Source: Mobula hypostoma (taxonomy: Eukaryota). Taken from it: a stretch of DNA of 64,000 nt. This document shows, piece after piece, positions 4,706-60,400 of the stretch. A program made the position numbers and the translations under genes. The notes under the pieces were generated by a model. That model was not told the origin of the DNA. It saw only the letters and a list, made by a program, of their open reading frames with translations, and did not search any database. The stretch covers positions 7,750,001-7,814,000 of the forward strand of contig NC_086108.1 of the NCBI RefSeq assembly GCF_963921235.1, read 5' to 3'. The stretch's first letter is position 1, and each line of letters begins with the position of its first letter.

Positions 4706-5062
4706 TTTCTCTAGTAAAAAAAACTCTCCTTTTCTAACCAAACAGTAAGCAATCCCTTCTCAACAGTAAACCAAAACATATAACCACACCCTAGACATTT
4801 TTGAACGTATAACATTTGAAAATTTTTCCCGACTTCCCACAGTGAGGCCTGAGCACTAACCCGCCTCAGTTCAGAGGGATAACCTCTATCTTCACTCTGT
4901 GTTAGAGGGCCCTCCGCAGTGCGAATAATCATAGAGAATTTTCTCCTATTTATGTCTCGACCATATTGCTACCATTCAAGTTATTCCCTCTAGTTTATTT
5001 TCAGATACCAGCTTTCATTTTACCTTTAAGTCCGATTTACTCTTTTCAGTCATTTCTCTTAA

Positions 5063-6049: not shown

Positions 6050-6564
6050 CCTTGCCCCTTTTATTAATATAGTTATACAATATTAAGTATTCCTCTAAAT
6101 TCGATTTTGGGGCAGTTTACCTTCTTTTTGGCCGAGAGACCTTTTCCTTACGCCGCCATTCCCTTGCTGACCCGGAAGTCCCCCACAACACCACTTTCAA
6201 TGAGTTATGGACCTGTATTCTCAGATCCCTTTGTTCTACCACACTCCTCCGTGCCTAAGGTTCACTGGGTAAAACCTACCCTGGTTGGTCCTAGCGAAAT
6301 GCAACACATCACACTTGTCTGCATTAAATTCCCTCCGGTACTTTTCCAGCTGGTCCATATCCCATTGCAAGCTCTAATAGTCTTCCTCACCGTCCATTAC
6401 ATCCCCTGTCCTGGTTTTATCCGCAAACTTGCTGATCGAGTTAACCATGTTATAATCACATCAGTAATGGAAATAATCTTGAAAATAGTCAAGTTTGAAT
6501 GTTATACCCATGCAGACAGATAGTATACCAGCATCACTGAGGGGATTCACAGAAGAGTGAAGGT

Positions 6565-16859: not shown

Positions 16860-17059
16860 TGAGCAAGGTGTAGCACCTGCTTAGCCCCACCAGTAGGGAC
16901 CTAGCTGTTTATAAACAATACTGTTCATTTTGCTGTGAGGATAACATGTAATATATTTGAGTACGTTAACTAACAAATCAAAGCAAAGTGGTAGTGTGGT
17001 CTGTGAAATAGATGCAAAGAGGATTTTTTTTTTAATTAAATGTTAGAAATACTCCTAAA

Positions 17060-17330
17060 CCTAAGAGATACTGTAGATACTGGAAATCCAGAGCAATGCA
17101 CACACAAAATGCCAGTGGAACTCAACAGGTCTGGCAGCATCCATGGAGAGGAATAAATAGTTGAAGTTTCAGACCGAGACCCTTCATCAGGACTGGAAAG
17201 GAAGGGGGCAGAAGCCAGAAGTAGAAGATTTTGGGGGGGGGGGGAGAGAGCTAAAGAGGGAGAAGTACAAGCTGACAGATGACAGGTGAGGGGAAAGGTG
17301 GGTGCCTGATGGGGGAGGGAGTGGAGTAAG
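17060..17330 (-). mobile_element. Penelope-like terminal region fragment
   Basis: Same gatgctgccagacctg..gagttcc..gcattttgtgtg module and hammerhead motif as the other copies. Confidence 0.75.
17158..17195 (-). ncRNA. Hammerhead motif, degenerate copy
   Basis: Minus strand reads cagtc-CTGATGA-agggtctcggtct-GAAA-cttc-aacta. Confidence 0.65.
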
Positions 17331-17489
17331 AAACAGGAAGGAAAACAAGTAGAAATATTCAGCATGTCAAACAGCAGCTTTTGCATGATATTCGCTTTTC
17401 TCTCAATTGTCTACTCTCAACCCAAAGCTATTTTTTTTCCAGAGCAACACACATATTACAGTTAAGATACGAGCAAGAATAAAGCTGTG

Positions 17490-17940
17490 GCTGATTGCCA
17501 GAAAGCAAAGAGTGGGAAAGAGCCTTTTCAGGTTGGCTGCAGACCAGTGATGTTCCAAAAGGGTCTGCACTGGGACAGATTCTTTTCACATTATACGTCA
17601 ATTATTTAGATGATGGAATTGGTGGCTTTGTAGAAATGTTTGCCGACGATATGGAGGAAGGTGGAGGGACAGGTAGTTTTGAGGAAGTAGAGAGGCTACG
17701 GAAGGACTTAAACAGATTAGGACAATGGGCAAAGAAATTGTAAATGGAACACAGTGTAGGGAAGTGTACGGTTATGCACTTTGGTTGAAGAAATAAAATG
17801 GTTGACTATTTTCTAAATAGAGAGAAAATTCAAAAACCCGAGGCACAAAGGGACTTGGGCGCCCTTGTGCAGGATTCCCTAAAGGTTAATTTTCAGGTTG
17901 AGTCGGTGATGAGGAAGGTAAATACAATGTTAGCATTCAT
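17490..17940 (+). repeat. CR1 RT fragment
   Basis: SDVPKGSALG, FADD and QRDLG motifs. Confidence 0.8.
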
Positions 17941-30366: not shown

Positions 30367-33300
30367 TGTTAGAAACATAGAAAACCTACAGCACAATACA
30401 GGCCCTTTCGGCCCACAAAGCTGTGCCAAACATGTCCCTACCTTAGAACTACCGAGGCTTTACCCATAGCCCTCTATTTTTCTAAGCTCCATGTATCCAT
30501 CCAGGAGTCTCTTAAAAGACACTATAATTTCCACCTCCACCACCGCCGCCAGCAGCCCATTCCATGCACTCACCACTCTCTGCATAAAAATTTATCCCTG
30601 ACATCTCCTCTGTACCTATTTCCAAGCACCTTAAAACTATGCCCTCTCGTGCTAGTCATTTCAGCCCTGGGAAAAAGTCTCTGACAATCCACACGGTCAA
30701 TGCCTCTCATTATCTTGTACACCTCTATCAGGTCACCTCTCATCCTCATTCGCTCCAAGGAGAAAAGGCCGAGTTCACTCAACCTATTCTCATAAGACAT
30801 GCTCTCCAATGCAGGCAACAGCCTTGTAAACTTCCTCTGCACCCTTTCTATGGTTTCCATGTCCTTCCCGTAGTGAGGCGACCAGAATTGAGCACAGTAC
30901 TCCAAGTGGGGTCTGACCAGGGTCCTATATAGCTGCAACATTACCTCTCGGCTCTTAAACTCAATCCCACGATTGATGAAGGCCAATGCACCGTATGCCT
31001 TCTTAACCACAGAGTCAACCTGTGTAACAGCTTTGAGTGTCCTATGGACTCGGACCCCAAGATCCCTCTGATCCTCCACACTGCCAGCTTACCATTAATG
31101 CTATATTCTGCCATCATATTTGACCTACCAAAATGAACCACCTCACACTTATCTGGGTTGAACTCCATCTGCCACTTCTCAACCCAGTTTTGCATCCTAT
31201 CAATGTCCCATTGTAATCTCTGACAGCCCTCCACTTCCTTATCCAGGTCATTAATAAAAATCACAAAGAGTAGGGGTCCCAGAACAGATCCCTGAGGCAC
31301 ACCACTGGTCACCGACCTCCGTGCAGAATATGGCCGGTCTACAACCACTCTTTGCCTTCTGTGAGCAAGCCAGTTCTGGATCCACAAAGCAATGTCCCCT
31401 TGGATCCCATGCCTCCTTACTTTCTCAATAAGCCTTGCATGAGGTAACTTATCAAATGCCTTGCTAAAATCCATATACACAACATCTACTGCTCTACCTT
31501 CATCAATGCGTTTAGTCCTCAAAAAATTCCTCTCCAAATGTGCATAAATCCCACCTCTCAGGATCTTCTCCATCAACTTACCAACCACTGAAGAAGACTC
31601 ACTGGCCTATAATTTCCTGGGCTATCCCTACTCCCTTTCTTGAATAAGAGAACAACGTCCACAACCCTCCAATCCTCCGGAACCTCTCCCATCCTCATTG
31701 ATGATGCAAAGATCATTACCAGAGGCTCAGCAATCTCCTCACTTGCTTCCCACAGTAGCCTGGGGTACATCCCACCCGGTCCCGGTGACTTATCTAACGA
31801 TGCTTTCCAAAAGCTCCAGCACATCCTCTTCCTTAATATCTACATGCTCAAGCTTTTCAGTCCGCTGTAAGTCACCCCTACAATCACCAAGATCCTTTTC
31901 CGTAGTGAATACTGAAGCAAAGTATTCATTAAGTACCTCCACTATTTCCTCCAGTTCCATACACACTTTTCCATTGTCACACTTGATTGGTCCTATTCTC
32001 TCACATTTTATCCTCTTGCTCTTCACATACTTGTAGAATGCCTTGGGGTTTTCCTTAATCCTGCTCGCCAAGGCCTTCTCATGGCCCCTTCTGGCTTTCC
32101 TAATTTCATTCTGAAGCTCCTTCCTGCAAGCCTTATAATTTTCTAGATTCCTATCATTACCTAGTTTTTTGAACCTTTCGTACGCTTTTCTTTTCTACTT
32201 GACTAGATTTAGAACAGCCTTTGTACAGCATGGTTTTTGTACCCTACCCTACCATCCTTCCCTTGTCTCATTGAAATGTATCTACGCAGAACTCCACGCA
32301 AATATCCCCTGAACATTTGCCACATTTCTTCCATACGTTTCCCTGAGAACATCTGTTTCCAATTGATGCTTCCAAGTTCCTGCCTGATAGGCTCATATTT
32401 CCCCTTACTCCAATTAAATGTTTCCCTAACTTGTCTGTTCCTATCCCTCTCCAATGCTATGGTAAAGGAGATAGAATTGTGATCACTAACTCCAAAATGC
32501 TCTCCCACTGAGAGACCTGACACCTGACCAGGTTCATTTCCCAATACCAGATCAAGTACAGCCTCTCCTCTTGTAGGCTTATCTACATATTGTGTCAAGA
32601 AACCTTCCTGAACACACCTAACAAACTCCACCCCATCTAAATCCCTCACTCTAGGAAGATGTCAATCAATATTTGGGAAATTAAAATCTCCCACCACAAC
32701 AGCCCTGTTATTATTACTCCTTTTCAGAATCTGTCTCCCTATCTGCTCCTCGCTGTCCCTGTTACTATTGGGTGGTCTATAAAAAACACCCAGTAGAGTT
32801 ATTGACCCCTTTCTGTTTCGAACTTCCACCCGCAGAGACTCAGTAGACAACCCCTCCATGACTTCCTCCTTTTCTGCAACCGTGACACTATTTCTGATCA
32901 ACAGTGCCACACCCCCACCTCTTTTGCCTCCCTCCCTGTCCTTTCTGAAACACCTAGAGCCTGGCACTTGAAGTAGCCATTCCTGTCCCTGCACCATCCA
33001 AGTCTCTGTAATAGCCACAACATCATAGCTCCAAGTACTGATCCACGCTCTAAGCTCATCCGCTTTATTCATAATATTCCTCGCATTAAAATAGACACAT
33101 CTCAAACCATCAGTCTGAGCGCGTCCCTTCTCTATCACCTGCCTATCCTCCCTCTCGGACTGTCTCCAAGCTTTCTCTATTTGTGAGCCAACCTCCTTGT
33201 CCTCCGACACTTCGGTTTGGTTCCCACCCCCCAGCAATTCTAGCTTACACTCTCCACAATAGCCTTAGCAAACCTTCCCGCCAGGATATTGGTCCCCTGG

Positions 33301-34397
33301 GATTCAAGTGCAACCCATCTTTTTTGTACAGGTCGCACCTGCCCCAGAAGAGGTCCCAATGATCCAGAAATCTGAATTCCCTGACCCCTGCTCCAATCCC
33401 TCAGCCACACCTTTATCCTCCACCTCACTCTATTCCTATACTCACTGTCACATGGCACAGGCAGTAATCCCGAGATGACTACCTTTGTGGTCCTGCTTCT
33501 CAACTTCTTTCCCTGTAGTTTGTTTCCAGGACCTCCTCCCTTTTCCTACCTATGTCGTTGGTACCAATATGTACCACGACCTCTGGTTGTTCTCCTTCCC
33601 ACTTCAAGATATCGTGGATGCGATCAGAAACATCCTGGACCCTGGCACCTGGGAGGCAAACTACCATCCGAGCATCTTTCCTGCATCCACAGAATCGCCT
33701 ATCGGACCCCTTATCTATGGGGTCCCCTGTCACTGCTGCCATCCTCTTCCTTTTCCTACCCTTCTGAGCCACAGGGCCAGACTCTGTGCCAGAGGCATGG
33801 CCACTGTTGCTTCCCCCAGGTAGGCCGCTCCCCCGCCCCATCAGTACTCAAGCAGGAGTACTTATTGTTAAGGGGGACATCCACTGGGGTACTCTCTAGT
33901 ACCTGCTTCTTGCCCTTCCCTCTCCTGACTGTTACACACTTCTCTATCTCCTGTGGCCCCAGGGTGACTACCTGCCTACAGGTCCTCTCTATCACCTCCT
34001 CACTCTCCCTGACCAGACAAAGGTCATCAAGCTGCAGCTCCAGTTCCCTAACGTGGTCCCTATGGAGCTGCAGCTCAACACACCTGGTGCAGATGTGGGC
34101 GTCCGGGAGGCCGGGAGTCTCCAGGACCTCCCACATCTGACACCAAGCACAGAAAACCTGCCTCACACACATACTTTCTGTCTTTATTTTAAACAGATAA
34201 CCTGCCTGGCCTCGACCCCTTATCGCCTGAGCCCAGTTGAGCCAAAGCCTTCCTACTCTGTCTTCCACTAATCTGTGGCCCGCTCCTCCAACGTCCGCTC
34301 TGTTATCTGTCTTCCTTTTAAACTCTTCCTGCTGCTCTCACTGGCTGAGCTCTACGCGCTTGCACAGTGGTGCCCCGTTCAAACCGCTGAATAAATA
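30367..34397 (-). mobile_element. Near full-length CR1 LINE (CR1-a), decayed
   Basis: ORF1 zinc finger/leucine zipper (CAWC..CTRC) and SGNH esterase (VVHIGTND); ORF2 YFNAR, GDFNFP, SDH, DFSKAFD, GVPQGSVLGP, RPHLEYC; TTCTATGT-like tail. Confidence 0.94.
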
Positions 34398-35280: not shown

Positions 35281-36824
35281 CTAACATTTTTTTAAAACAA
35301 TAAAAATAATAAATAAATAAGCAATAAATATCAAGAGCCCTGCCCAAGGGTGACCTGCAGTCTAGCAGAGGGAAGGAGTGCCTTACACCTCCTTTGGTAG
35401 AGACATATCCCTACCCAGTCACCCAATATTAACAGCATTTGATAGCTACCTGGACATGTACATGGATTGGAATATTTCCATCGGAGCTGCTCACACAAGT
35501 CACCTTCCTAATGGTGCCACGGTAGATACACTACCATGGAGAGCATTCTAACTGGCTACTTTACCATCTGGTATGGGGAGTGGGGGACGCACAACACAGG
35601 ATCAAAGTAAGCTGCAGAAAGTTGTGAACTCAGCCAGCTCCACCGCGGGCACTGGCCTCCCCAACATCCAGAACATCTTCAAAGATCGATGCCTCAAAAT
35701 GGGGACATCCATCAAGGACTCCCATCTCCCAGGACATGCCCCCTTCTCAATGCTAACATCAGGAAGGAGGTACAGGAGTCTGAAAGCACACACTCAATGA
35801 TTCAGGAACAGCTTTTTCCCCTCTGCCATCTGATTACAGAAAGGACATTGAACCCATGAATGTTACCTCACTATACTTCTTACTGTAATTTACAGTTTGT
35901 ATTATTATGGATTGCAATGCACTGCTGCTGCTTAACAATAAATTTCACGACGTATACTGAGGATATTAAACCTGATTCTGATTTTGATTGGAAAGGTTTA
36001 GAACAGGGGTTCCCAACTTTTTTTTATGCCATGCCCTGAGGGGTACGTGGACATCCCTCTGAGGGATATGGGCCAATCACAGGCAAATGGAAATCAATTC
36101 AATTCAAGTTTTATTGTCATTCAACCATATATGAATACCCATGAACACAGCCAAATGTAACAGTGTTACTCCTGAGTCTAGGAGCAAAACATAGTCACAC
36201 ACAGCACAAAGCTCACTAGCACATACAAGATACAACACTTCACTTGTGAGTCTGTTGGGGTCATCTATTGCATCTGATGCTCCCGGCGCGGCCTCCTCTA
36301 TATCGGTGAAACCCAATGCAGATTGGGGGACCGCTTCGTCGAGCACCTCCGCTCCGTCCACCACAACAGACAGGATCTCCCGGTAGCCACCCACTTCAAC
36401 TCTGCTTCCTATTCCCATTCAGATATGTCCATACATGGCCTCCTCTACTGCCATGATGAGGCTAAACTCAGGTTGGAGGAGCAACACCTCAAATACTGTC
36501 TAGGTAGTCTCCAGCCCCTTGGTATGAACATAGAATTCTCCAACTTCCAGTAATTCCCTCCCCCTCCCTTCCCCTATCCCTATGTCACTCTGCCCCCTCC
36601 CCCAGGTGCCTATCACCTCCCTCATGGTTCTGCCTCCTTCTACTACCCATTGTGTTTTCCCCTATTTCTTCTTCACTTTTCCTGCCTGTCACCTCCCTGC
36701 TTCCCCTCCCCCACCCCTTTATCTTTCCCCTTACTGGTTTTTCACCTGGAACCTACCAGCCTTCTCCTTCCCACCCTCCCCCCACCTTCTTTATAGGGCC
36801 CCTGCTCCCTCCCTCTACAGTCCT

Positions 36825-39062: not shown

Positions 39063-39669
39063 TGAAGTAAAAACTTCAGTTTTTTACTTTAAGTGAGGCA
39101 CGCACGTATCGCGTGGGGCTGAGAAGGATAATGAATGTATGCAATTTATGTAATTATACATATAACTCATAATTAATTACTTAAACAAGAATGGTTAATC
39201 AACAATATATTTACAAGATTATTCAAATGTTACCTATATATTGCAGTGTCTATAAGAAGTATTCATCCTCTCCCTCCGGCCCCCCTTGAAAGTTTTCGTG
39301 TTTTATTGTTTTACCACATTGAATCACAGTGGATGTAATTTGGCTTTTTTTGACACTGATCAACAGAAAAAAATCTCTTTCATGTCGAAGTGAAAACAAA
39401 TCTCTACAAAGTGATCTAAATTAATTACAAATATAAAACACAAAATAATTGATTGCATAAGTATTCGCCCTCCTCCCCCCCCTTAATATGACAGACCAAA
39501 TCATCATTAGTGTTGCCATTTGGTTTCAGAAGTCATATAATTAGTTGAATGGAGATCACTGTGTTCATTCAAGGTGTTTCAATTGATTGTAGTAAAAATA
39601 CTGCTGGGTGAGTCAGTATCCTGGCAGAAGCTACACTATAAAGACAAAAGAACACTCAAAACAACCCTG

Positions 39670-42600
39670 TTGTGTACATACATCTACTGATGCTTCTGGA
39701 CACATCTTCAGTGATGTTCCTGGAATCATCGGGTGTTTCGGGTCTTTCAACATCATACAACCTCCTCCAGGTGACCCAGCCGGGGCTGATCAGACCCCAG
39801 CTTGTGTCCAGATGGCTAGCTACTTATGACTCCATGGCTCCCCTCTTTTGAGCCACAGCCATCTTTGAGGCCCTCTCTGCCAGATTGGCGGCACTGCGGA
39901 TGGCTCTCCTCCTCCTCTCTCCCTCGATGCCCAAAATGCTGAAGGCTCTAACTAAAGAACGGGCTGTGAATCCCCTACAGCCAACCTCCACTGGGAGACA
40001 CCTCACTCTCCATCCAGCCTGCTGACAGTTGCTGACCAGTCCTGCGTACTTGGAGAGCTTCCTTTCAAAGGCCTCTTCCAAGCTATCTTCCCTTGGGACT
40101 GTCAGCTCCAGCAGCACCACTTGCTTAGTAGACTCAGACACTAGGACAATGTCTGGTCGCAGGGTGGTGGTTGCGATATGGTTGGGGAACTTCAGCTGCC
40201 CTTCGAGGTCCACCAACAGCTGCCAGTCCCTTGCAGAGGTCAGAATGCCTGCAGATGTTCTTTTGGCGGGTATTGGCTTTTCCCCAGCTCTGACAAAGGC
40301 AATGGTCTGCTTGGAGGGTCGGGACCACCTCGCCCACTCAACTCCTGCGCTGACGGCTTCAGTGATGGTCTTCAGGACCTGATCATGCCTCCACCTGTAC
40401 CATCCCTCACCAAGTGCCCTTGCACAGCCACTGAAGATGTGCTCCAGAGTTCCTCGCTTGGAGCACAGTGGGCACGCAGATGACTCTGCCTTGCCCCATG
40501 TGTGCAGGTTTGATGGGCTTGGAAGCACATCGTACACTGCCTGGATGAGAAATTGGATGCGGTGTGGTTCGGCTTTCCAAAGATCAGCCCAGGTCACTTT
40601 CCTCTCAACTGCATTCTCCCATCTTGTCCAAGCTCCCTGTTGCTTCATTCCCACCGCCTTGCAGGCTCTCGTCTTCTCTACTACTGCTCTCACCTCCTCC
40701 TGAACTAGACGACGCCTTTCCTTCCCTCTGGTGTCCATTTGGGGAGTTGGAAAGGATCCTAGCCCAGCTCGGCCTCGTGTGACCACTCCCACCAGCCTCC
40801 TGTGATGCAGCCTCGCCTCTGCCTCCTGAACAGCTTCCTCTGCCCTCCACTTCCTGCCAGTACTTACTTGGATCCCTGCTCTAGCCACCTTCGGGTCACT
40901 TGAGTCCCTATACTGTGGCACTTCTCTGGCTCTTGTTACCTTGAATTCTTCCTCCAAGGATTTGAAAGGCAGTTGCAGTTTGTTGTGGTGTCCATAGAGT
41001 GCGATGCTGCTCAGGCTCTTTGGCAGCCCCAGCCATCTCCTGAGGAGGTTGCTAACCCTCCTCTCTAAGGTTTCGACTGTCGAGATCGGAACTGCATAGA
41101 CGAGGAGGGGCCACAGGATTCTGGGAAGAATGGCGTGCTGATACACTCAGGCTTTAAACTTCCCAGGTAGGCCAGACTTGTCCACAGATTTCAACCAGCC
41201 ATCCAACTCAGTGTAGGTTGCCTGAATGGATGTTGTGTCCCTTAAAGAGCTGTCAAAAACTTTGCCTAAGCTCTTGACTGGCTTTTCTGTGATGGTTGGG
41301 ATGGCTGTGCCTGCGATGCTGAACCGGAACTTGTTCTCCACGTTCCCTTTCCTCAGCACCATCGATCTTGATTTGGCAGGTTTGAAACGCATCCGGGCCC
41401 ACTCCACCAGCTTTTCGAGCCCTTGCAGAATCCTCCGGCAGCCTGGGACTGATTCTGTGGTGACTGTGAGGTCATCCATGAATGCCCTGATAGGTGGTTG
41501 CCGTTGAGTGGAATTCATTCTGGGCCCTCTGCACTCTGGTTCAGCAGACTTAGTGAGCATGTTCATGGCTAGGGAGAACAGTGTCACTGAGATAGTGCAC
41601 CCTGTGATGATGCCCATCTCCACCTTGTGCCAGGTTGATGTAATTGCTCCTGAAGAGACCCGCATCCTGAAGTTGCTGTAATAATCAGCGATAAGGTCTC
41701 TGATTCTGCTGGGGACGTGATATTTGGGCAGTGTGAGCTGCACCAGCTTGTGCGGAATGGAGCCATATGCATTTGCCAGGTCGAGCCACAACACTGACAG
41801 TTTGCCCTTGTTCTCTCTGGCCTCCCTGATGAGCTGTGTCACCACACCGATGTGCTCCAGACTGCCTGGCATCCCTGAAATGCCACCCTTCTGGACTGAT
41901 GTATCAATATAGGTGTTCTTTGCTAGGTAGGTGCACAACCGGTTGGAAACTGCACTGAAGAAGATCTTTGCCTTGACACACAGCAGGGAGATGATGCGAA
42001 ACTGATCTATCTGGGTGGGATTTTCCTCCTTCGGGATCCACACCCCTTCTGCCACTCTCCACTGTGCTGGGATCTTCCCCCTTCTCCAGAAGATTCTCAG
42101 GATCTTCCACAGACACAGCAGGAGTTTGGGGCAGTTCTTGTACACTTTGTACGAGGTGTTGCTTGGTCCTGGAGCCGAGCTTGCCCTTGCTTTGCGGACG
42201 ACCTCTCTAACTTCCTTTAGTTGCAGCTCTGACATGCCGAACTGCACATCCGGTTCAGGTGGGTCTATTAGGATGTCGCACTCTCCCAACTCCTGCTCTC
42301 TTTCAGGATCATTATATATCTTCTTCAGATGTTGGTCTATGTCTTCCTGCGAACAGGCCAGTTTCCCACTTTGCTTCTCCCCCAGCAACTCCTTGGTGAA
42401 CTTGAAGGGGTTGGTGATAAAGGCAGCACGTTTTCGAGCCCTTTCACGACGCCGCCTCCGATGCCACTCTGCCCGGCGGAGGACCCTGATCTTCTTTCGT
42501 AGTATGCACATCAGCTGGGCCAAGCCAATGCGCTCCTCTTCTCCTGCCTCCTTGTATTGGGACTTCAGCGCTTTCATCTCCTGCCTGATGTTGTGGATCC

Positions 42601-43292
42601 TCAATGCTCTTTGGTTCTTCGAGTAAGACGTTTTGGAGCCTTCTTTCTCCTCTTCTCCAAACCGTTCCGCTGCGATACTGACAATAATTGTTGTCATGGC
42701 TTGCAGCTTCCTATCAGCCCCTCCCTTCGCTGTTGCCTCCAGAATTTGGTTAACATCTTCATCAAACTGCTTCCACAGTGAAGTCATGTTAGCTGCAGGC
42801 CATTTGATCCGCCTCCTGTTAGACTTGATGTTCGAGGGATTAGTTTGCAACACTTGGAGGTTCCGGGCACTATGGGGTGACTCCGGGCTTGGCCCCTCCC
42901 TCGTCTCGCCAGGTTGGACACCTGCGCGTTGTGCTGCTCCTGCTCCCGCCAAACACTTCACCCTCGCTTGGTGGATCTTCAAGCCACGATCGTTCTTGCA
43001 GATTTTGCCACATGCACACTGCTTCCTCATCGTCGTTTGTTCATTGCCTGGGTCTGATGTCATTGTGTCCATCCGACTGGGGTGCTTATCCTCCCCCCCT
43101 CTCGGGCACCCCTGGGGGTATCTTTCCCTTAGATTCTTTGTGGCTTTTTGTGGGGGTCCTCCTCTCAGAGGACGCAGATTGGGTTGCCAGCCCGTTCTGC
43201 CCTGCTTGCCGTCTCTCTGGGCTGTCACTGACTCTCCAGTCGTCACCACTCCTTTCCTGGTTGTCACCCAGTCTTTCCTGGTTGTCACTGAT
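39670..43292 (-). mobile_element. Hero-like non-LTR retrotransposon (RT + restriction-like endonuclease), near full length
   Basis: N-terminal C2H2-like finger CACGKICK..GLKIHQAR, RT (WLDLANAYGS, GCTIS, AFMDD), CCHC CPLC..LEHIFSGC, RHD, RPDIV..ELTVP..ERKLSKY. Confidence 0.92.
39824..43288 (-). pseudogene. Hero-like single ORF, broken by one in-frame TGA (41149-41147) and a terminal 1-nt indel
   Basis: The 713-aa and 440-aa ORFs are in the same frame, separated by one stop (GKFKA*VYQH, probably TGG>TGA); extra T near 39864-39866 relative to the second copy. Confidence 0.9.
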
Positions 43293-44141
43293 TAACTCAG
43301 GGTGTAAGCTGTGTACATACATCTATTGATGCTTCCGGACACATCTTTCAGTGATGTTCCTGGAATCATCGGGTGTTTCGGGTCTTTCAACATCATACAA
43401 CCTCCTCCAGGTGACCCAGCCGGGGCTGATCAGACCCCAGCTTGTGTCCAGATGGCTAGCTACTTATGACTCCATGGCTCCCCCCTTTTGAGCCACAGCC
43501 ATCTTGAGGCCCTCTCTGCCACATCGGCGGTACTGCGGATGGCTCTCCTCTTCCTCTCTCCCTCGATGCCCAAAATGCTGAAGGCCCTAACTCAAGAACG
43601 GGCTACGAATCCCCTACAACCAACCTCCACTGGGAGACACCTCGCGCTCCATCCAGCCTGCTGACAGTTGCTGACCAGTCCTGCGTACTTGGAGAGGTTC
43701 CTTTCAAAGGCCTCCTCCAAGCTATCTTCCCTTGGGACTGTCAGCTCCAGCAGCACCACTTGCTTAGTAGACTCAGACACTAGGACAATGTCTGGTCGCA
43801 GGGTGGTGGCTGCGATATGGTTGGGGAACTTCAGCTGCCCTTCGAGGTCCACCAACAGCTGCCAGTCCTTTGCAGAGGTCAGAATGCCTGCATATGTTCT
43901 TTTGGCGGGTATTGGCTGCTCCCCAGCTCTGACAAAGGCAATGGTCTGCTTGGAGGGTCGGGACTGCTTCGCCCACTCAACTCCTGCGCTGACGGCTTCA
44001 GCGATGGTCTTCAGGACCTGATCATGCCTCCATCTGCACCGTCCCTCACCAAGCACCCTTGCACAGCCACTGAGGATGTGCTCCAGAGTTCCTTGCTTGG
44101 AGCACGGTGGGCACGCAGATGACTCTGCCTTGCCCCATGTG
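43293..44141 (-). mobile_element. Second, 5'-truncated Hero-like copy (RLE domain and 3'UTR), head-to-tail with the first
   Basis: 43310-44141 closely repeats 39670-40501. Confidence 0.95.
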
Positions 44142-45090
44142 AAAAGGTTATTGAAATGCACAAGACGGGAGATGGATACTAGAACATTTCCAAGTCACTG
44201 AATATCCCCTGGAGTACAGTTCAATCATCAGGAAATGGAAAGAATATGGCACAGCTGTAAATCTGCCTAGAGCAGGCCGTCCTCAAAAACTGAGTGACCG
44301 TGCAAGAAGGGGGCTAGTGAGGGAGGCCACCAAGAGACCCATGACAACTCTGGAGGAGTTACAAGCTTCAGTGGCTGAGATGGGAGAGACTGCACATACA
44401 ACAACTGTTGTCCGGGTGCTTCACCAGTCACAGCTTTATGGGAGAGTGGCAAAGAGAAAGCCACTGTTGAGAAAAACTCGCATGAAATCTCGGCTAGAGT
44501 TTGTCAGAAGGCACGTGGGAGACTGAAGTCAGCTGGGAAGAATCGAGCTTTTGGGCCATCAGACTAAGTGCTATGTTAGGCATAATCCAAACACTGCACA
44601 TCATCAAAAACATGCCATCCCTACCATGAAGCATGGTGATGGCTGTATTGTGCTGTGGGGATGCTTCACTGCAGCAGGCCCTGGAAGGCTTGTGAAGGTA
44701 GAGGGTAAAATGAATGTAGTACAGTGAAATTTTGGAGGAAAACCTGATTCAGTCTGCAAGAGAACTGCATTGTGGGAGAAGATTTGTTTTCCAGCAAGAC
44801 AATGACCCCAATCATAAAGCCAAAGCTACACAGGAATGGCTTAAAAACAACAAAGTAAAAATCCTGGAGTGGCCTAGTGAGAGTCCAGACCTCAATCCAG
44901 TTGAAAATTTGTGTCTGGACTTGGAAAAAGCTGTTCACTCATGATCCCCATGCAGTTTGACAGAGTTTGAGCAGTTTTGTAAAGAAGAATGGGGAACAAT
45001 TGCAGTGTCCAGATGTGCAAAGCTGGTAGGGACCTAACCACACAGACTCAAGGCAGTAATTGCTCCAAAGGTACATCTACTAAATACTGA
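44138..45090 (+). pseudogene. Tc1 DDE transposase remnant (first ~10 codons at 39638-39669)
   Basis: KTKEHSKQ..EKVIEMHK N-terminus, [38 protein letters not shown], terminal STKY*; contains stops and frameshifts. Confidence 0.92.
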
Positions 45091-46914
45091 CCTGAAAGGG
45101 GTGAATACTTATGCAATCAATTATTTTGTGATTTATATTTGTAATTAATTTACATCACCGTGTAGAGATGTTTTCACTTTGTCATGAAAGAGTTTTTTTT
45201 CTGTTGATCCGTGTCAAAAAAGCCAAATTAAATCCATTCAATGTTGTAAAACAATAAAACATGAAAACCTCCAAGGGGGAGGGGTGAATACTTTTTATAG
45301 GCACTGTAGATACATAATACCCAGCGTGACAGGCAGATTCTGCTGAGGAAATGGACAGTTGACTTTTTGCTCCTCCTTACCTGGATCCACTAATGGCCTC
45401 CCAGCTCTTACTCCACCCCATCCCCTCAGCCATGCAGCTGGCTCCTCTCTTCAGCTCACACCTCCCCCCCGTCTTTCAGATCAGGTGAAAGGTCTTGACC
45501 CAAAACATTTATGGTCCATTTGCCACCACAGCCCCAGTGATTTCTTTCAGCAATTTGTTCGTTGGTCCAAATTCCAGCACATTTTTGGCCCTGAACTTAC
45601 AATGAAGGAAAATGTACCTTTTGCCACCGTAACCACCTCTAAGTTCAAAGTAAGTTTATTATCTAAGTACAAGCCCGGCGGAGCCGTTTCTGCTGACAGG
45701 AGAAGGAGCAAGCCGGATTGCCAGCACCCTTCAAACCAGTCGCTTCGGGCAGACGGAGCTTGGCAGCTCACCTAGCAGAGGAAAAGCTGTGATCTCAAAC
45801 CTCTGCTGCTTTGTGGCTGCACCCGCTCATGGGGAAGGGTTTGGGGTGCATGGAGAGGGGGAGCCTGCTACATGGGCAAGAGCTTGCTCTACATATTGTA
45901 CTGCCCAGGCTTCTGCATCTAGAGAGATAGGATGCAACATTCATGGTCAACTCTGACTGACGAAGGCCTCACATATATGTCACCATATACAATCCTGAGA
46001 TTCATTTTCTTGTGGGCATACTCAACAAATCCATAGAATCGTAACCGTAACAGAATCAAAGGAAGACCACCCAGCTAGGGTGTTCAACCCAAATGCAGAA
46101 TACAACAAACTCCGCAAATTACGAATAAATAAATAGACAGACGGAAAGATAGATAAATAAACAAATAAATAAAACTGAGAACAGGAGGTGAAGAGTCCTT
46201 GAAAGTAAGTTCATTGGTTGTGGGAACATTTCAATGATGGGGTAAGTGAAGTACGGTCGAGAGCCTGATGGTTGAGGGGTGGTAACTGTTCCTGAACCTG
46301 TGCTGTGAGTCTCGAGGGTCCTGCGCTTTCCTCCTGATGGTGGCAGTGAGAAGAGAGATGCGGGGTGGGTGTTCCTGTTATGGATGCTGCTTTCAAACTG
46401 ACATGGACACCAAGATCTGTACACAAACATTTCCAAATCTATCACCATTTAAGGGGTATCCTGCCTCTCTGTATTCCTACCAGATAACTTCACATTTATT
46501 TACATTATATTCCTCTGTCAGATATTTATCAAATTCTCTAAAGTATCTTGACGCTCCTTTGAGGACAAGAATTTAGTGATGGCACAAGTGTAGAGAGAGA
46601 GACACGGACGCAGAATGAACAGGGTCATATAGCCACAGAAAAGTACAGCACAGAAATAGGCCTTTTGGCCCATCTAGTCCATGCCAAACCATTTAAACCA
46701 CCTACTCCCATCGACCTGCACCGGGACTGTAGCCCTCCATATCTCTACCGTCCATGTGCCTGCCCAAGATTCGCGTAAAAGTAAAATCGAGCTCACATGC
46801 ACCACTTGCACTGGGAGCAAATTCCACACTCTCACCACCCTCTGAGTGAAGACGTTTACCCTCATGTTCCCCTTAAACTTTTCACTTTTCATTGCTGAAT
46901 TCAAGTTACTACCT

Positions 46915-47752: not shown

Positions 47753-50700
47753 GAACATAAGATAAGAAATAGGAGCAGGAGTCGGCCATCTGGCCTGTCA
47801 AGCCTGCCCCGCCATTCAATAAGATCATGGCTGATCTGACCATGGACCTGCCTTTTCCCTATAACCCTTAATTCCCCTACTATGCAAAAATCTATCCAGC
47901 CTTGTCTTAAATATATTTACTGAGGAATCCTCCACTGCTTCATTGGGCAGAGAATTTCACAGATTCACCACTCTCTGGGAAAAGCAGTTTCTCTTCATCT
48001 CTGTCCTAAATCTACTCCCCCGAATCTTGAGGCAATGTCCTCTAGTTCTAGTCTCACCTACCAGTGGAATCAATTTTCCTGCCTCTATCTTATCTATCCC
48101 TTTCATAATTTTATATGTTCCTATAAGATCTCCTCTCATTCTTCTGTCCAGTGAGTACAGTCCCAGACGACTCAATCTCTCCTCATATTCTAACCCCCTC
48201 ATCTCTGGAATTAACTCGGTGAATCTCCTCTGCACCGCCTCCAAAGCCAGTATATTATTTTTCAAGAAAGGAAACCAGAACTGTATACAGTACTTTAGGT
48301 GTGGACTCACCAGTACCCTGTACAGTTGCAGCATAACCTCCCTGCTCTTAAATTCAATCCCTCTAGCAATGAAGGCCAACATTCCATTTGCCTTCTTGAT
48401 AGACCGCTACACCTGCAAACCAACATTTTGTGATTCATGCACAAACACTCCCAAGTCCCTCTGCACAGCAGCATGCTGCAATGTTTTACCATTTAAATAA
48501 TAATGTGCTCTTTCATTTTTCCTTCCAAAGTGGATGACCTCGCATTTACTAACATTCTACTCCATCTGCCAGACCCTTGCCCACTCATTTAACCTATCTA
48601 TATCTTTCTGTACACTCTCCATATCTTCTGCACAATTAGCTTTTCCACTCAATTTAGTATCATCCGCAAACCTCTTCCAGATTGTTAATGTGTATCATGA
48701 ACAGATGCGGGCCCAGCACTGACCCCTGTGGCTCACTGCTCACCAGTGACTGCAGTCCAGAGTAACACCCATGTTTTACTCTCTGCTTTCTATTTGTTAA
48801 CTAATCCTCTATCCATGCTACTATGTCACCCCCAACTCTAGGAATCCTTATCTTATTGATAAGTCTTTTATGCGGCACCTTATCGAACACCTTCTGGAAA
48901 TCCCAAGTAAATAATGTCCATCTGTTCCCCTCTATCCACTGCACTCATTATATCCTCAAAGAACTCCAGTAAGTTTGTCAAACAGGACCTGCCCTTGCTG
49001 AATCCATGCTGCATCTGCCTGATGGGTCCATTTCTTTCTAGTTGCCCCGCTATTTCTCCTTTAATGATAGCTCCAAGCATTTTCCCAACTACAGAGGTTA
49101 AACTAACTGGCCTATAGTTACCTGCCTTCTGCCTACATTCTTCTTTGAACAGTGGCATGACATTTGCTGTCTTCCAATCCACCGGGACCTGCCCAGAGTC
49201 CAGAGAATTTCGTTAAATCATCACCAAAGCCTTCGCTATAACTTCTGCCATTTCTTTCAGTACCCTGGGATGCATTCCATCAGGACCAGGGGACTTATCT
49301 ATCTTAAGGCCCACAAGTGTTCTCAGCCCCCCCTCTTTAGTGATAGCTATCGTATCGAGGTCCTCACCTCCCATTGCACCCTTAACATCTTTCTTTGGCA
49401 AGGTAGATGTGTCCTGCACCGTGAAGACGGACACAAAATGGTCATTTGAAGCCTCAGCCATTTCCTCATTACCCAATATCAGTTCCCCCTTCTTGTTCTC
49501 CAAAGGACCTACATTCTCTTTAGCCACCCTTTTCTGCTTTTTATAATTATAAAAACTTTTACTATCTATTTTTATATTTTGTGCTAGTTTATTTTCATAA
49601 TCTAGCCTCTGTTCCTTTATTGCTTGCTTAGTTGTTATTTGTTGCTTTTTAAAGTTTTCCCAATCTTCCAGTTTCCCACTACTCTTGGCAACTATGTGTG
49701 CACAAGCTTTTAGTTTGATGCCTTCTTTATTTCCTTAGTTATCCAAGGCTGGCTCTCCCCTCCCTTACTGTCCTTGCTTTTAATTGGAATATAATTTTGT
49801 TGAGCAGTGTGAAAAATCTCTTTGAAAGTCTTCCACTGTTCTTCAACTGTCCCACCAAATACCCTGTGTTCCCAGTCTACAGTAGCCAAATCCTCCCTCA
49901 TCCCATTGTAGTCTCCATTAGGCATAATACACTGATTTTAGATTTGTGTGAGAAATTCACTCAGACTGTGATCACTCTTTCCAAGAGGATCCCTAACTAC
50001 AAGATCACTGATTTTATCTGTCTCATTGCACAGGACCAGATCTAAGATAACACATTCCTTTGTAGGTTCAATAACATGCTGTTGAAGGAAGTAATCATGG
50101 ATGCATTCTACGAAGTCCTCCTCAAGACCATCTCAACCAACTTGATTCACCCAATCTATGTGCGAGTTACAGTCCCCCATGATAACTGTTGTTCCATTCT
50201 TACATGCCTCGGATAGTTCTCTCCACCCTGCAGCCACTAAATCGTACCCCTTTGTAATGATTTGAGCCACAAGTTCACTGACCTTGTTTCGAATACTACG
50301 GGCATTCAAATAAAGTGCCCTTACACTCATTGTGCTTTTAAAAATCTTGTAATCTTTTACTCTTTTGCACTAGACTTTTCTTCACTCCACTCTTACTTTT
50401 CTCTTTTTCTTATCTTTCGCTCTTTTTTTATCTTTATCCACACTTTTCTTTTTTAACTTTATCCATACTTCTCCAATCTGTTGAATCCACCCTGCCTACG
50501 ATTTAGTTTAAAGTCCTAAACACAGGCTTAGTTATGCGATTCTCTGCGATCCGGGTAAGGTGGTTCATGTGAAGCCTATCCCATTGGTTCAGCTCCCTCC
50601 TTCCCCAATACTGGTACCAATTTCCCATGAATTCAAACCCACTTCTCCCACACCGATCCTTGAGCCTCGTATTTAACTCTCTAATCTTCTTGACCCTATG

Positions 50701-51880
50701 CCAATTTGCACGTGGCTCAGTTAGTAATCCAGAGACTGCCACCATTTAGGTTTTGCTTTTTAATTTAGTCCCTAGCTGCTCAAATTTCCTCAGCAGAACC
50801 TCTTTCCTCATTCTACCTATGTCGTTGGTACCCACATGGACCACGACAACTGGATCTTTCCCCTCCCAATGCAAATTCCTCGGCAGGTCGGATAAGATGT
50901 CCCGAACAAGGGGACCAGGCAGGCAACGCAGCTTTTTGGATTCTTTATCCTCGTGACAGAGAACTCTGTCTATTCCCCTGACTATACTATCCCCAATTAC
51001 CACTGCATTTCTCTTCTCTCCCCTCTCTTGAATGGCTCCCTGAACCGCAGTGCCACAATTATGTTGCTCATCCTTCCTACAGCCCCCACTCTCATCCACA
51101 CAGGGAGCAAGAATCTCAGACCTGCTGGACAAGCCCAAGGGCTGAGGCTCCTCCAGCACTGTCTCTTGGATCCCACTACCCACCTCACTCGCAGTCACAC
51201 CCTCTTGTCCCTGACCACAGACCGAATTTGAGGCAGCTAATCTAATGGGTGTGACTCCCTCCCGAAACAGAGAATCCAGGTAGATCTCCCCCCCCCCCCC
51301 CCACCCCGCCACCCCGATGTGCCTCAGTGTTTGAAGCTCAGATTCCAGGTCATCAACTTTGAGCATAAGTTCTTCGAGCAGACAACACTTGCTGCAGATG
51401 TGGTCACCAGGAACCACGTCATGCAGCTACAGCACATCACCTGATCCTCCATCATCCCTACTTTATTTAATTAGCTGTAACTTAGTGACTTTTTATTCAA
51501 CCACGACAAAAGCCTTACTTGCCACTTACCTGTGCCTCCCCGCTGAAGCCTCAGGTTCCCACTCCTACACTGGTCCCTCGCACAATGGCTGCTCCGCTTT
51601 GACCCTGTTTTACTTTTATTTGCTCCTGCTAATTAACTGCGAATTGATTGGTCCGCCGCTAATGTGCCGATCCCCATGAAACGCTCCTTATTTAAACTCT
51701 TCTCCCCGACCTATGCGAAGCTCTCTCTCTCTTCGAATCTGTTGGTCGACACTCATGAGCCGAGCCCCGTGAAACACTCCTTTTTTAAACCGACCTGTAG
51801 AAAGCTCTCTCTCTCTCCTTGAATCGATTGGTCCGCTACTAATGCCAAGTCTGCAATGCCACGTCTTAACCTTTGTCAAA
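47753..51880 (-). mobile_element. Near full-length CR1 LINE (CR1-b) with internal deletions
   Basis: ORF1 CSKC plus esterase VIGDSIVRG and VHVGTND; ORF2 YLNARS, KSPGPDG, YRPVSLTS and C-terminal pieces; short tandem tail at ~47753-47770. Confidence 0.92.
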
Positions 51881-57262: not shown

Positions 57263-57391
57263 CGGGGTGATTGATAAATTCGTGGCCTAAGGTAGAAGGA
57301 GATGAGTTATTAACTTCAAACTTCCTGTATAATCACTCAAACAGTTCAACTGCATGTGCATGTAACGAGAGCTGTATAACTGACACCTTCC
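57263..57391. mobile_element. Mariner-type MITE with truncated right TIR
   Basis: ggggtgattgataaattcgtggcct terminus; aaggagatgagttat (57296-57310) is imperfectly inverted at 57376-57390. Confidence 0.55.
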
Positions 57392-57479
57392 TCACCCACC
57401 GACACATCCACACACACAGACAGTTCTCCAAACCGCAGACGTCTGAACTACCGGAGATAGGTGGATGTGTGTGCCTGGT

Positions 57480-60400
57480 CCCTCTCTCTCTCTCTCTCTC
57501 TCTCCCTCCCTCCCTCTCTCCCTCTCTCTCCCCTCTCCCTCTCTCTGTCTCTCCCCTTCTCTCTCCCTCTCTCCCTCTTTCTCGCTCCCCCCTCTCTCTC
57601 CCTCTCTCACTCTCTCTCTCCCACTCACTCTCTCTCTCCCTCTCTCACTCTCTCTCTCCCCCTCACTCCCTCTCTCTCTCACTCTCACTCTCTCTCCCTC
57701 TCTCTCCATCTCACTCTCTCTCGCCCTCTCTCTCCCCCCTCTCTCTCCCTCTCTCTCTCACTCTCTCTCCCACTCCCTCTCTCTCACCCTTCTCTCTCTC
57801 TCCCTCTCTCTCTCCCTCTCTCTCCTTCCCTCTCCCTCTCTCTCCCTCCCTCTCTCTCTCCCTCCCTCTCTCTCCCCCTCTCTCTCACCCTCCAACCCTC
57901 CCTCCCTCTCTCTCTCTCACTCTCTCTCTCTCTCCCTCTCTCTCCATCTCACTCTCTCTCGCCCTCTCTCTCCCCCCTCTCTCTCCCTCTCTCTCTCACT
58001 CTCTCTCCCACTCCCTCTCTCTCCCCTCTATCCCTCTCTCCCTCTCTCTCTCCCTCTCTCTCTCCGTCTCTCTCTCCCTCTCTCCCTCTCACTCTCTCTC
58101 TCTTTCTCTCCCTCTCCATCTCTCTCTCTCCCTCTCCCTCCCTCCCTCTCTCAATCTCTCTCCCCCTTTCCCTCTCTCTGTCTCTCCCTTTCGCTCTCCC
58201 TCCCCCATCTCTCTCCCCCTCTCCCCCACCTCTCTCTCCTTCTCTCTCTCACTCCCTTTCTCTCCCCCTACCCGCTCTCCCCCTCTCTCTCCCTCTCTCC
58301 CCCTCTCTCTCTCCCTCTCTCGCTCCCCCTTTCTCTCACCCTCTCTCTCTCCCCCTCTCTCACCCTCTCTCTCCTCCCCCCCTCTCCCCCTCTCTCTCCC
58401 TCTCTCTCCCTCCCTCTCTCTCTCCCTCTCCCCCTCTCTCTCCCCCTCTCTCTCCTTCCCTCTGTCTCCCTCTCTCCCTCTCCCACTCTCTCGCCCCCCC
58501 TCTCTCTCCCCTCTCTCTCCCTCTCTCTCTCCTTCTCTCCCTCTCTCTCTCCCTCTCTCTCTTCTTCTCTCTCCCTCCCTCTCCCTCTCTCTCCCTCTCT
58601 CTCTCCCTCCCTCTCTCTCTCCCTCCCTCTCACTCTCCCTCCCTCTCTCTCTCCCTCCCTCTCTCTCCCCCTCTCTCTATCTCTCTCTACCTCTCTCTCA
58701 CCCTCCAACCCTCCCTCCCTCCCTCTCACTCTCTCTCCTTCTCTCTCTCACTCTCCCTCTCCCTCTCTCTCCCTCTCTCTCTCTCCTTCTCTCTCCCCCT
58801 CTCTCTCCATCTCTCTCTCTCTCGCCCTCTCTCTCCCCCTCTCTTTCTCCCTCTCTCTCTCACTCCCTCTCCCACTCCCTCTCTCTTCCCCTCTCTCCCT
58901 CTCTCCCTCACTCTCTCTCCTTCTCTCCCTCTCTCTCCCTCTCTCTCTCTCTTGCCCTCTCTCTCCCCCTCTCTCCCCCTCTCTCTCCCTCTCTCCCTCT
59001 CCGTCTCTCTCTCCCTCTCTACCTCTCACTCTCTCTCTTTCTCTCTCTCTCCATCTCTCTCTCCCCCCTCTCCCCTCTCTCCCTCCCACCTCTCTCTCCC
59101 CCTCTCCCCCACCTCTCTCTCCTTCTCTCTCTCACTCCCTTTCTCTCCCCCTCCCGGCTCTCTCACCCCTCTCTCTCCCTCCCACTCTCTCTCTCCCTCT
59201 CTCTCCCTCTCTCTCTCTCTCTCCCTCTCTCTCTCCCCTCCCCCCTCTCTCCCTCTCTCTCTCCCCCTCTCCCCCCTCCCTCCCTCTCTTAATCTCTCTC
59301 TCCCTCTCTCACTCTCTCTCTCCCCCTCACTCCCTCTCTCTCCCTCCTTCTCCCTCTCTCTCCCTCTCTCTCCCTCCTTCTCCCTCTCTCTCCCTCTCTC
59401 TCCCTCCTTCTCCCTCTCTCTCCCTCTCTCTCCCTCCCTCTCTCTCTCCCTCCCGCTCTCTCCCCCTCTCCCTCACCCTCCAACCCTCCCTCCCTCTCTC
59501 TCTCAGTCTCACTCTCTCTCTCCCTCTCTCTCCCTCCTTCTCCCTCTCTCTCCCTCTCTCTCCCTCTCTCTCCCTCTCTCTCCCTCTCTCTCCCTCCCTC
59601 TCTCTCTCCCTCCCGCTCTCTCCCCCTCTCCCTCACCCTCCAACCCTCCCTCCCTCTCTCTCTCACTCTCACTCTCTCTCTCCCTCTCTCTCCCTCCTTC
59701 TCCCTCTCTCTCCCTCTCTCTCCCTCCTTCTCCCTCTCTCTCCCTCTCTCTCCCTCCCTCTCTCTCTCCCTCCCGCTCTCTCCCCCTCTCCCTCACCCTC
59801 CAACCCTCCCTCCCTCTCTCTCTCAGTCTCTCTCTCCCTCTACCTCTCTCTGTCTTTCTCTCTCCCCCCTCTCTCTCCCTCTCTCTCTCTCTCCCCCTCT
59901 ACCCCTCTCTCCCCCCCTCTCTCTCCGTCTCTCTCTCTCTCTCTCCCTCTCCCTCCCTCCCTCTCTCAATCTCTCTCCCCCTCTCCCTCTCTCTGTCTCT
60001 CCCTTTCGCTCTCCTTCCCCCATCTCTCTCCCCTCTCTCTCCCCCACCTCTCTCTCCTTCTCTCTCTCACTCCCTTTCTCTCCCCCTCCCCGCTCTCCCC
60101 CCTCTCTCTCCCTCTCTCTCCCTCCCTCTCTCCCCCTCTCTCTCCCTCTCTCTCCCTCCCTCTCTCTCTCCCTCTCCCTCTCCCTCTCTCTCTCCTTCTC
60201 TCTCCCTCCCTCTCTCTCTCCCTCTCCCTCTCTCTCTCCCCTCTCTCTCTCCTTCCCTCTGTCTCCCTCTCTCCCTCTCCCACTCTCTCGCCCCCCCTCT
60301 CTCTCCTCTCTCTCTCCCTCTCTCTCTCCCTCCCTCTCTCTCTCTCTCCCTCTCGCTCCCCCCACCCCTTCTCTCTCTCGCTCTCTCTCTCTACCTCCCT

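Follow-up and report, generated by a model that had tools for sequence, protein, structure and literature searches.

A partial tandem of a Hero-type retrotransposon in a Tc1 transposase gene, and the recurrence of its tail-to-head joint

In the window (the whole 64-kb stretch of DNA that was analysed), one full unit of a Hero-type retrotransposon and the tail of a second copy lie end to end inside a single Tc1 transposase gene, which raises the question of how such a pair is made. An earlier note on this DNA read the visible joint as the scar of a chance template jump onto a different RNA; that reading is not supported, as the same joint is present at many loci and in distant families. The account that we consider probable is one insertion from a more-than-unit template of a single source, with the partial tandem as a regular product of this clade.

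Anatomy of the insertion

The Tc1 N-terminus (IKTKEHSKQPC) runs up to 39670 and resumes as EKVIEMHK from 44141, with no codon lost or gained by comparison with relative P0097, which reads MKTKEHSEQLREKVIEKYK over the insertion point. The features of the locus are as follows.

39244..39470, plus strand: left terminal inverted repeat of Tc1, whose outer TA reads TG here
39638..39670, plus strand: Tc1 transposase codons 1-11, ending at the insertion point (by comparison with P0097)
39671..43309, minus strand: Hero-type copy 1, a complete 3639-nt unit with a single ORF
40050..40474, minus strand: CCHC knuckle and motifs RHD, RPD, ELTVP and K, placed by inspection and presumably those of a restriction-like endonuclease (RLE)
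41264..42037, minus strand: reverse transcriptase (RT) domain (Pfam search, RVT_1, E 2e-19)
42953..43018, minus strand: N-terminal Cys/His motif, positioned by inspection, of zinc-finger-like type
43293..43309, minus strand: templated spacer of 17 nt on the 5′ side of the tail-to-head joint (from contig depth and relatives)
43310..44141, minus strand: Hero-type copy 2, the 3′-terminal 832 nt, 5′-truncated inside the coding region upstream of the CCHC knuckle
44138..44141, no strand assigned: tgtg microhomology of 4 nt at the 5′ junction with Tc1
44141..45070, plus strand: remaining Tc1 transposase, decayed by a stop and frameshifts
45099..45306, plus strand: right terminal inverted repeat of Tc1, followed by TA

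Much of what the earlier note described is borne out by this arrangement: a full-length copy stands head-to-tail with a truncated one, copy 2 adjoining the 5′ end of copy 1 on the same strand with zero Tc1 DNA between them, the Tc1 frame resumes seamlessly, and the tgtg at 44138-44141 fits Hero and Tc1 alike. The sequence of this junction fits equally a target duplication of 3 nt accompanied by microhomology and a blunt joint made at the microhomology. The 17 nt at 43293-43309, about which the same note had been undecided, are element sequence on the 5′ side of the joint and not untemplated filler, contig depth at 43293 being about equal to that at 43252. The Tc1 terminal inverted repeats differ in 16 of 208 columns (7.7%) and the two Hero copies by 4.0%, so Tc1 is the older insertion. 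No Hero copy beyond this pair was found in the 64-kb window.

The ORF of copy 1 starts at an ATG near 43069 and carries one in-frame stop (41147-41149) and a 1-nt insertion near 39864-39866. In the Pfam search, zf-RVT scored 26.3 bits over the C-terminal region, under its 27.5 cut-off, and no RLE profile matched; the C-terminal half had no match among PDB sequences, and protein relatives sought among viral contigs were not found. Full-length relatives are 1121-1258 aa long, the named ones come from teleosts and Branchiostoma, and three 3′ flanks are all different, consistent with the mostly non-target-specific habit of HERO. As described in the available text of two papers, HERO elements are RLE non-LTR retrotransposons, mostly not target-specific, from fish, lancelet and sea urchin, and the element shares with them a single ORF, an RT, a putative C-terminal RLE, the lack of site specificity and relatives in fish and lancelet (PMC4640811; PMC9004415). 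The element is thus classed as Hero-type RT-RLE by ORF layout, putative motifs and relatives, within a tree that contained no named HERO references.

Recurrence of the joint and divergence of the copies

The earlier note held that finding the same junction at many loci would speak against its jump; such recurrence was looked for in contigs, loci and translations, and was found in all of them. In a contig comparison (32 pieces listed of 53,629, all runs consisting of short contigs), three of the pieces listed extend from the 5′ side as far as 43309, and each of them runs on into the tail, by 8, 40 and 92 nt; two of those listed, ~10% diverged and from organisms B and D, count as bridging pieces, and none of those listed from organism A (X1, X11) does. 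The pieces that bridge the joint may be orthologous to this locus, not paralogous.

Of eight loci, two reach the 5′ end, L004 and L005, and both carry the joint, with 71% and 68% identity across the joint region and an unchanged 57-nt spacing between its flanking motifs; the L004 contig, an assembled consensus, is circular and has a unit of 3639 nt. The two fish-type relatives with the joint show ~65% amino-acid identity, and P0003 and P0006 translate across it. When the joint peptide of L004 was searched, 29 matches were obtained, four of them clearly with both sides in order, by a search that favours matches holding both sides; six of the 29 had been flagged, and P0196 and P0204 (marginal) and P0216 (a chance Cys-rich match) were left out of the count. 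Besides the two fish-type relatives, the joint occurs in at least five further database translations. In a quick tree the bearers are spread over four distinct branches within a clade of 14 rows that has 100% SH-aLRT, and the tail upstream of the joint spans 8 to 832 nt across cases, P0191 having only ~4 codons of it. The 3′ end of L002 extends 7-8 nt into joint-like sequence. Upstream of the distant second copy in L005, no match to the tail is seen, and a region search with the N-terminus of P0003 recovered P0003 itself alone. No untemplated bases occur at the joint. The same joint in the same register in diverged contigs, relatives and database translations indicates that it is inherited; on these comparisons it looks like a regular feature of this Hero-type clade, with a Penelope-like layout.

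The divergence between the copies bears on whether they had one source. Over 832 nt (39671-40502 versus 43310-44141), 33 substitutions and 2 one-base indels were found, so the several-percent coding difference estimated in the earlier note holds at 4.0%; it is not confined to coding change shaped by selection, and has the neutral pattern of decay after insertion. Seven of 31 coding substitutions are synonymous (9.7 +/- 2.6 expected if neutral), compared with 46 of 76 between L001 and both copies (Fisher p = 5e-4). This apparently neutral pattern suggests that the differences arose after insertion. Private changes number 13 in copy 1 and 20 in copy 2, with 2 unpolarised (p = 0.30 for equal age).

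In addition, both copies carry five common non-family alleles, with P(>=5) = 0.012 under CpG weighting and P(>=3) = 0.006 under a uniform model for chance; three of the five account for <0.4% of summed depth in runs X1, X5 and X10, and one alters a W that is W in 30 of 30 closest proteins. This W-to-R allele was also considered as proof of a dead source and rejected, W being present in just 32 of 85 over all relatives. The ‘non-family’ alleles may mark a local subfamily, as the best run share is 0.59 and the window's species is perhaps absent from the runs. At synonymous site 43715, where the copies differ, both alleles are common in organisms A and B (31-36%), which is the pattern that two templates would give and, as far as the sequence goes, counts against a single source. 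Neutral divergence and the five common alleles argue against an origin of the copies from distinguishable templates, and site 43715 points otherwise; both halves probably come from one source lineage, identical or nearly so at insertion, and decayed neutrally later.

A hammerhead-like fold in the 3′ UTR

A conserved fold with hammerhead-like blocks is predicted in the repeated end of the element.

39696..39811, minus strand: 3′ UTR fold of copy 1, with the blocks ordered S-G-C and cleavage predicted at 39756/39755
43335..43451, minus strand: 3′ UTR fold of copy 2, whose CUGAnGA block has a private insertion of 1 nt; cleavage predicted at 43396/43395, which lies 86 nt upstream of the joint

The pattern of NUH, GAAA and CUGAnGA in S-G-C order with stems I and III matches in L001, L002 and L004 (0 of 2000 shuffles each), and both window copies fail it through a stem III mismatch in each and, in copy 2, also the core insertion. 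Core variation is limited to H17 (A/C) and N7 (A/U/G). A stem II strand contiguous with CUGAnGA was not found: after a bulged U, 4 of 5 pairs form (3 of 5 in L004), the best stem II partner, GGGUC, lies upstream without adjoining CUGAnGA, and the strand 3′ of CUGAnGA covaries in the closing helix, not in stem II. Across five sequences, stems I and II are invariant, stem III has one compensatory pair, and helix 4, which joins the far sides of stems I and II, has two, with 93% of cells paired.

No Rfam family reached gathering level in L001, L002, L004, L005 or 42900-43700, so no known ribozyme family was matched. HDV, pistol and twister topologies were rejected by eye, their helix orders being different. 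A motif scan of viral contigs gave one chance match, in a phage-like gene (L128), and none with a longer pattern, and the 119 prokaryote matches in genome contigs were taken as chance. Type-SGC hammerheads, described from metatranscriptomic and metagenomic RNAs, share with the Hero fold the block order site, GAAA, CUGAnGA, a short stem I-II linker and an additional helix that connects stems I and II at their far sides, and differ from it in that the Hero stem II partner GGGUC is upstream and the 3′ neighbour of CUGAnGA belongs to the closing helix (Eckert et al. 2023, PMC10085705); in the available text of that paper, ‘retrotranspos’ occurs in the reference list only. If it self-cleaves, the covarying 3′ UTR fold with its rare S-G-C blocks could yield a circular template, but its stem II is non-canonical.

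Origin of the pair and its bearing on related retroelements

As the earlier note proposed, we infer that an RT-RLE element entered Tc1 in a single TPRT event that ended with microhomology. The Hero endonuclease would nick the old Tc1 gene after codon 11; RT would prime at the fixed 3′ end of the element (39671), copy one full unit, cross the inherited joint (43309/43310) into the second tail and stop 832 nt further; and the cDNA would join the target via tgtg. A tandem or more-than-unit template, which the earlier note listed as an alternative, fits better by virtue of the recurrent joint and the shared rare alleles. How the template came to exceed one unit has three candidate answers, each with less than even odds: a read-through transcript of a tandem source is slightly ahead, and a circular RNA made by the hammerhead-like 3′ UTR and a jump guided by RNA terminal redundancy, after which 43309/43310 would show no scar, follow closely at equal weight. 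In the circular case, a non-circularly permuted S-G-C hammerhead, its closing helix inserted between A9 and G10.1, would cleave tandem transcripts at a site 85-86 nt upstream of the joint; ligation of the unit would follow, and RT would prime internally and roll past one turn. That Hero is an autonomous RLE-type LINE replicating through circular RNA, with partial tandems as the only competent sources, is unlikely.

An improbable rival is self-targeting: the 5′ end of a full-length copy, whether already resident or only just synthesised, would be the precise target of a second RNP, so that target choice fixes the joint and gives the same register in every family. Site 43715 suits it, as does the tgtg on both sides of copy 2, although in copy 1 and L001 the element itself has tgtg as its 3′ end; Penelope pseudo-LTRs have been explained by tandem insertion (PMC2377424), and Utopia-1_NVit is described as occasionally tandem (PMC4640811). 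However, copy 2 is not the younger (20 versus 13 private changes) and shares rare alleles with copy 1, where a 3′ end stands alone, as in the window, L001 and L002, it adjoins unrelated DNA, and upstream pieces of 8-50 nt are easier to see as truncation points on a continuous template.

The identical joint and spacing in distant families, the absence of untemplated bases and the lack of signs that the copies stem from different selected lineages make it very improbable that RT, on reaching the 5′ end of its RNA, passed by chance to the 3′ end of another, different one and then aborted, even though dimer geometry and site 43715 fit. Template jumping by R2 was reportedly described by Bibillo and Eickbush. 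R2 proteins jump in vitro, and cells carrying endonuclease-dead R2 yield head-to-tail products (PMC11371274). Were such jumps routine and precise, this reading would merge with the more-than-unit template that we favour. A change in the DNA after a monomer had inserted (unequal crossing-over between short terminal repeats, or gene conversion, followed by deletion) would make the shared rare alleles mutations gained before duplication, but it is not a simple adjacent duplication, the deletion would have to stop precisely at the insertion point and spare every Tc1 codon, and it leaves the recurrence in other families unexplained, so that we regard it, too, as very improbable. A false duplication in the assembly is extremely improbable given the private changes in each copy, the unduplicated flanks and the conservation of the joint in relatives.

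The favoured account places Hero beside other systems, compared here from the available text of the sources. Penelope-like elements (PLEs) share the partial tandem, a full-length copy with a 5′-truncated copy upstream (PMC2377424; PMC11167929). They have a telomerase-like RT and GIY-YIG, and a promoter in the upstream 3′ UTR is a further trait of the group; the Hero protein has instead an RT and a putative C-terminal restriction-like endonuclease, and in it GIY-YIG had no Pfam match at E 0.1 and RLE-type motifs were seen instead; by sequence, the element is PLE-like in layout and not a PLE. Circular intermediates driven by hammerheads have been put forward for PLEs and, in metazoan retrozymes, demonstrated as circRNAs (PMC4209133; PMC7229834); these systems share with Hero tandem copies, a hammerhead-like motif in the repeated end and more-than-unit reverse transcription as a proposed route, whereas Hero is autonomous, 3.6 kb long and RLE-bearing, with a motif, known here from sequence, that differs from the minimal type I hammerhead. 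Template jumping by R2 and the tandem products of PRINT demonstrate that an RLE-type RT can yield head-to-tail products (PMC11371274; PMC11331408), which are incidental in R2, in contrast to a Hero joint conserved across families. No description of a partial tandem or 3′ hammerhead-like fold in Hero was found in the literature searched, outside which lie Repbase Reports, most subscription journals and bioRxiv supplements, which may describe Hero termini.

Regeneration of pseudo-LTR partial tandems is stated to be unexplained for Penelope (PMC2377424), and a second, unrelated retroelement clade with this layout makes the question testable by comparison; it also touches on the source of a promoter and a defined 5′ end in RLE elements outside rDNA. 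The boundaries of Hero consensus sequences may have been set wrongly, and what look like in vivo template jumps in this clade are not to be taken as accidents. The 3′ UTR fold predicts a cut site precisely enough for an inexpensive test in vitro. If true, an S-G-C hammerhead occurring naturally in an autonomous LINE of a eukaryote would be a novelty for work on ribozymes and on retrotransposons alike, and would matter for gene insertion tools based on RLE elements.

The Hero-type pair in Tc1 and the age of its halves

A decayed Tc1 element (TIRs at 39244-39470 and 45099-45306) is split after codon 11 by a 4471-nt insert on the minus strand, which consists of two copies of a restriction-like endonuclease (RLE) element.

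39671-43309, minus strand: copy 1, a full unit of 3639 nt with one RT-RLE-type ORF
43310-44141, minus strand: copy 2, a repeat of the last 832 nt, at the 5' end of the copy 1 unit

These coordinates bear out an earlier note's description of a near full-length copy plus a 5'-truncated second copy within Tc1, and the seamless Tc1 ORF that it reported across the insert is confirmed by the two Tc1 halves, which, translated apart, both match a related protein (P0097) with zero codons lost. There is one clean insertion site. The copy 1 ORF carries one stop and one 1-nt insertion and retains an RVT_1 match (E 2e-19), and the Hero label appears to fit both its domain layout and the host range of its relatives. 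With its copies 4.0% apart, the Hero pair is younger than the Tc1, whose TIRs are 7.7% apart. The left target dinucleotide of Tc1 (39242-39243) is TG, not TA.

Between the two copies there are 33 substitutions and 2 indels. Of the 31 coding changes 7 are synonymous, where random placement would give 9.7 +/- 2.6, while 46 of the 76 differences between the outgroup locus L001 and both copies are synonymous (Fisher p = 5e-4). Because the synonymous share between the copies fits random placement, unlike the L001 contrast, their differences are neutral decay and not divergence of two active subfamilies. When changes were polarised with family-majority bases (best 40 of 191 rows) and L001, 13 were private to copy 1, 20 to copy 2 and 2 remained unpolarised (equal-age p = 0.30). 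In addition, the copies share 5 bases that depart from the family majority (P = 0.012 by chance, with CpG weighting); 2 are family polymorphisms and 3 hold <0.4% of summed depth in three public sequencing runs (X1, X5 and X10), an argument weakened by the possible absence of the window's species from the runs (best share 0.59). The contrary case is site 43715, which differs between the copies and has both alleles common in organisms A and B. By these comparisons the two halves are equal-aged and from one source lineage, although site 43715 points the other way.

The protein of 39671-43309 shares 87-88% identity with L001 and with P0031, whose label names the teleost Muraenolepis orangiensis, and the three form a clade with 100% support; the element is a candidate for horizontal transfer. 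Distant relatives (P0025, P0028, P0030, P0036-P0061, P0064, P0071, P0076, P0079, P0080, P0082) carry extra domains PF08719, PF02902 or PF00443, which we take to be NADAR, Ulp1 protease and ubiquitin hydrolase. Elsewhere in the window are an ORF (36278-36553) with a GIY-YIG-like C-terminus typical of Penelope-like elements (PLEs); several degraded LINEs of the APE type that look L1/Tx1-like and CR1-like (932-6082, 8376-10528, 15857-20470, 30941-34337, 47865-51426); and >5 kb of CT/GA low-complexity sequence (~57270-63000), a source of long spurious ORFs.

Recurrence of the tail-to-head joint

Other copies of the element were sampled via public contigs, using region 42700-44600 and 4 of 24 listed runs, each of them made up of contigs. 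Three of the 32 pieces listed, out of 53,629, extend to 43309 from the 5' side; each of them runs on into the tail (the 3' end part of the element), by 8 nt (X10), 40 nt (X5) and 92 nt (X10). The 40-nt and 92-nt pieces bridge the joint and are ~10% diverged, so they are probably paralogues of the window locus; among the matches listed for X1 and X11, no piece reaches across the joint. At 43293 the summed depth nearly equals that at 43252, and thus the 17 nt at 43293-43309, for which the earlier note asked whether they belong to the 5' or the 3' end, travel with the element's 5' end.

Two of 8 metagenome loci, L004 and L005, extend to the 5' end. In L004, a circular contig whose unit measures 3639 nt, the joint is kept in register, at 71% identity over 584 columns; L005 begins ~48 nt inside the tail, preceded by an AT-rich flank. 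The motifs that flank the joint stand 57 nt apart in L004, in L005 and in the window. At a third locus, L002, 7-8 nt of joint-like sequence lie beyond the 3' end (one case). L005 also holds two Hero-type elements of different families (1-2690 and 3073-6338) head to head, ~380 nt apart, the inverted one at 37% identity, and no tail lies upstream of the distant second copy.

The N-terminal run is long enough in 5 of 85 related proteins, of which P0003 reads in translation from the 3' UTR through to the 5' region (E 5e-11, against 2e-4 for the best shuffled control) and P0006 crosses the joint (E 2.5e-5). The L004 joint peptide, a query biased towards two-sided matches, gave 29 matches among 1.84 billion representatives, with 6 flagged as both-sided in order and 4 of these clear (P0189, P0193, P0195, P0203); the tail portion of P0191 is only ~4 codons, and most remaining matches stop at the tail, as expected of truncated copies. 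In a quick tree, joint bearers are spread over four branches of a 14-row clade. Found in bridging contigs, L004, L005 and proteins, the joint is not the unique scar of one locus; these sequences show it conserved across the clade, with upstream extensions of 8-832 nt.

Just 5' of the ATG (43075-43125, minus strand), a C-run/G-run segment that by eye could form an H-type pseudoknot is kept in L001, L004 and L005, and the 5' region also contains a short motif in four repeats.

A candidate permuted hammerhead in the 3' UTR

A six-helix, doubly pseudoknotted fold suits five tails (both window copies, L001, L002 and L004), with 38 pairs, 97.9% of cells paired, 7 compensatory pairs and 0 of 500 shuffles, figures that come from few, related sequences and a structure derived from those same sequences. 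Within it lies a hammerhead core of three blocks, GUH (stems III and I), then GAAA, then CUGAnGA, whose variation is limited to positions H17 and N7. The core motif is matched by L001, L002 and L004 and by 0 of 2000 shuffles; both window copies fail it, and Rfam gave no match at gathering level for L001, L002, L004, L005 or window 42900-43700.

The block order, plus a helix tying stems I and II, is that of the S-G-C permutation of Eckert et al. (2023; PMC10085705), where CUGAnGA and the stem II strand are held to be uninterruptible. Unlike the type described there, the strand 3' of CUGAnGA covaries here in a closing helix, and it forms only 3-4 of 5 pairs with the GAAA-side strand. This conflict lowers the odds of a ribozyme. 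The closing helix may be inserted at A9/G10.1, which would make the fold non-canonical, or the strand may act in a switch; we regard the 3' UTR fold as a candidate permuted hammerhead.

Possible sources of a longer template

A one-off template jump, as the earlier note proposed, is unsupported, since the joint recurs in the clade and the copies are equal-aged and from one source lineage. Instead, target-primed reverse transcription (TPRT) would start from the fixed 3' end of the element on a template exceeding one unit in length, and would end through microhomology. The extra template could be supplied by read-through transcription from a tandem source, by a ribozyme-made circle, or by a jump guided by terminal redundancy, three routes that the data do not tell apart. 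The strongest rival to such an over-length template is self-targeting directly after the first insertion.

The window element is not a PLE. It is laid out like the partial tandems of Penelope, which make up as many as 30% of D. virilis copies and have no obvious regeneration mechanism (PMC2377424). Circular templates have been proposed for them (PMC4209133), internal priming on continuing RNA is demonstrated for one PLE (PMC11167929), and R2 proteins jump in vitro and yield head-to-tail products in cells (PMC11371274). In the literature searched, with Repbase Reports and most subscription journals outside its scope, we found no description of head-to-tail or tandem copies, a hammerhead, a terminal repeat or circular intermediates for Hero, so we could not find either the clade-wide habit or the candidate permuted hammerhead described. 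The partial tandem in the window is a real feature, and it opens onto what appears, across the related sequences, to be a partial-tandem habit of the whole clade.
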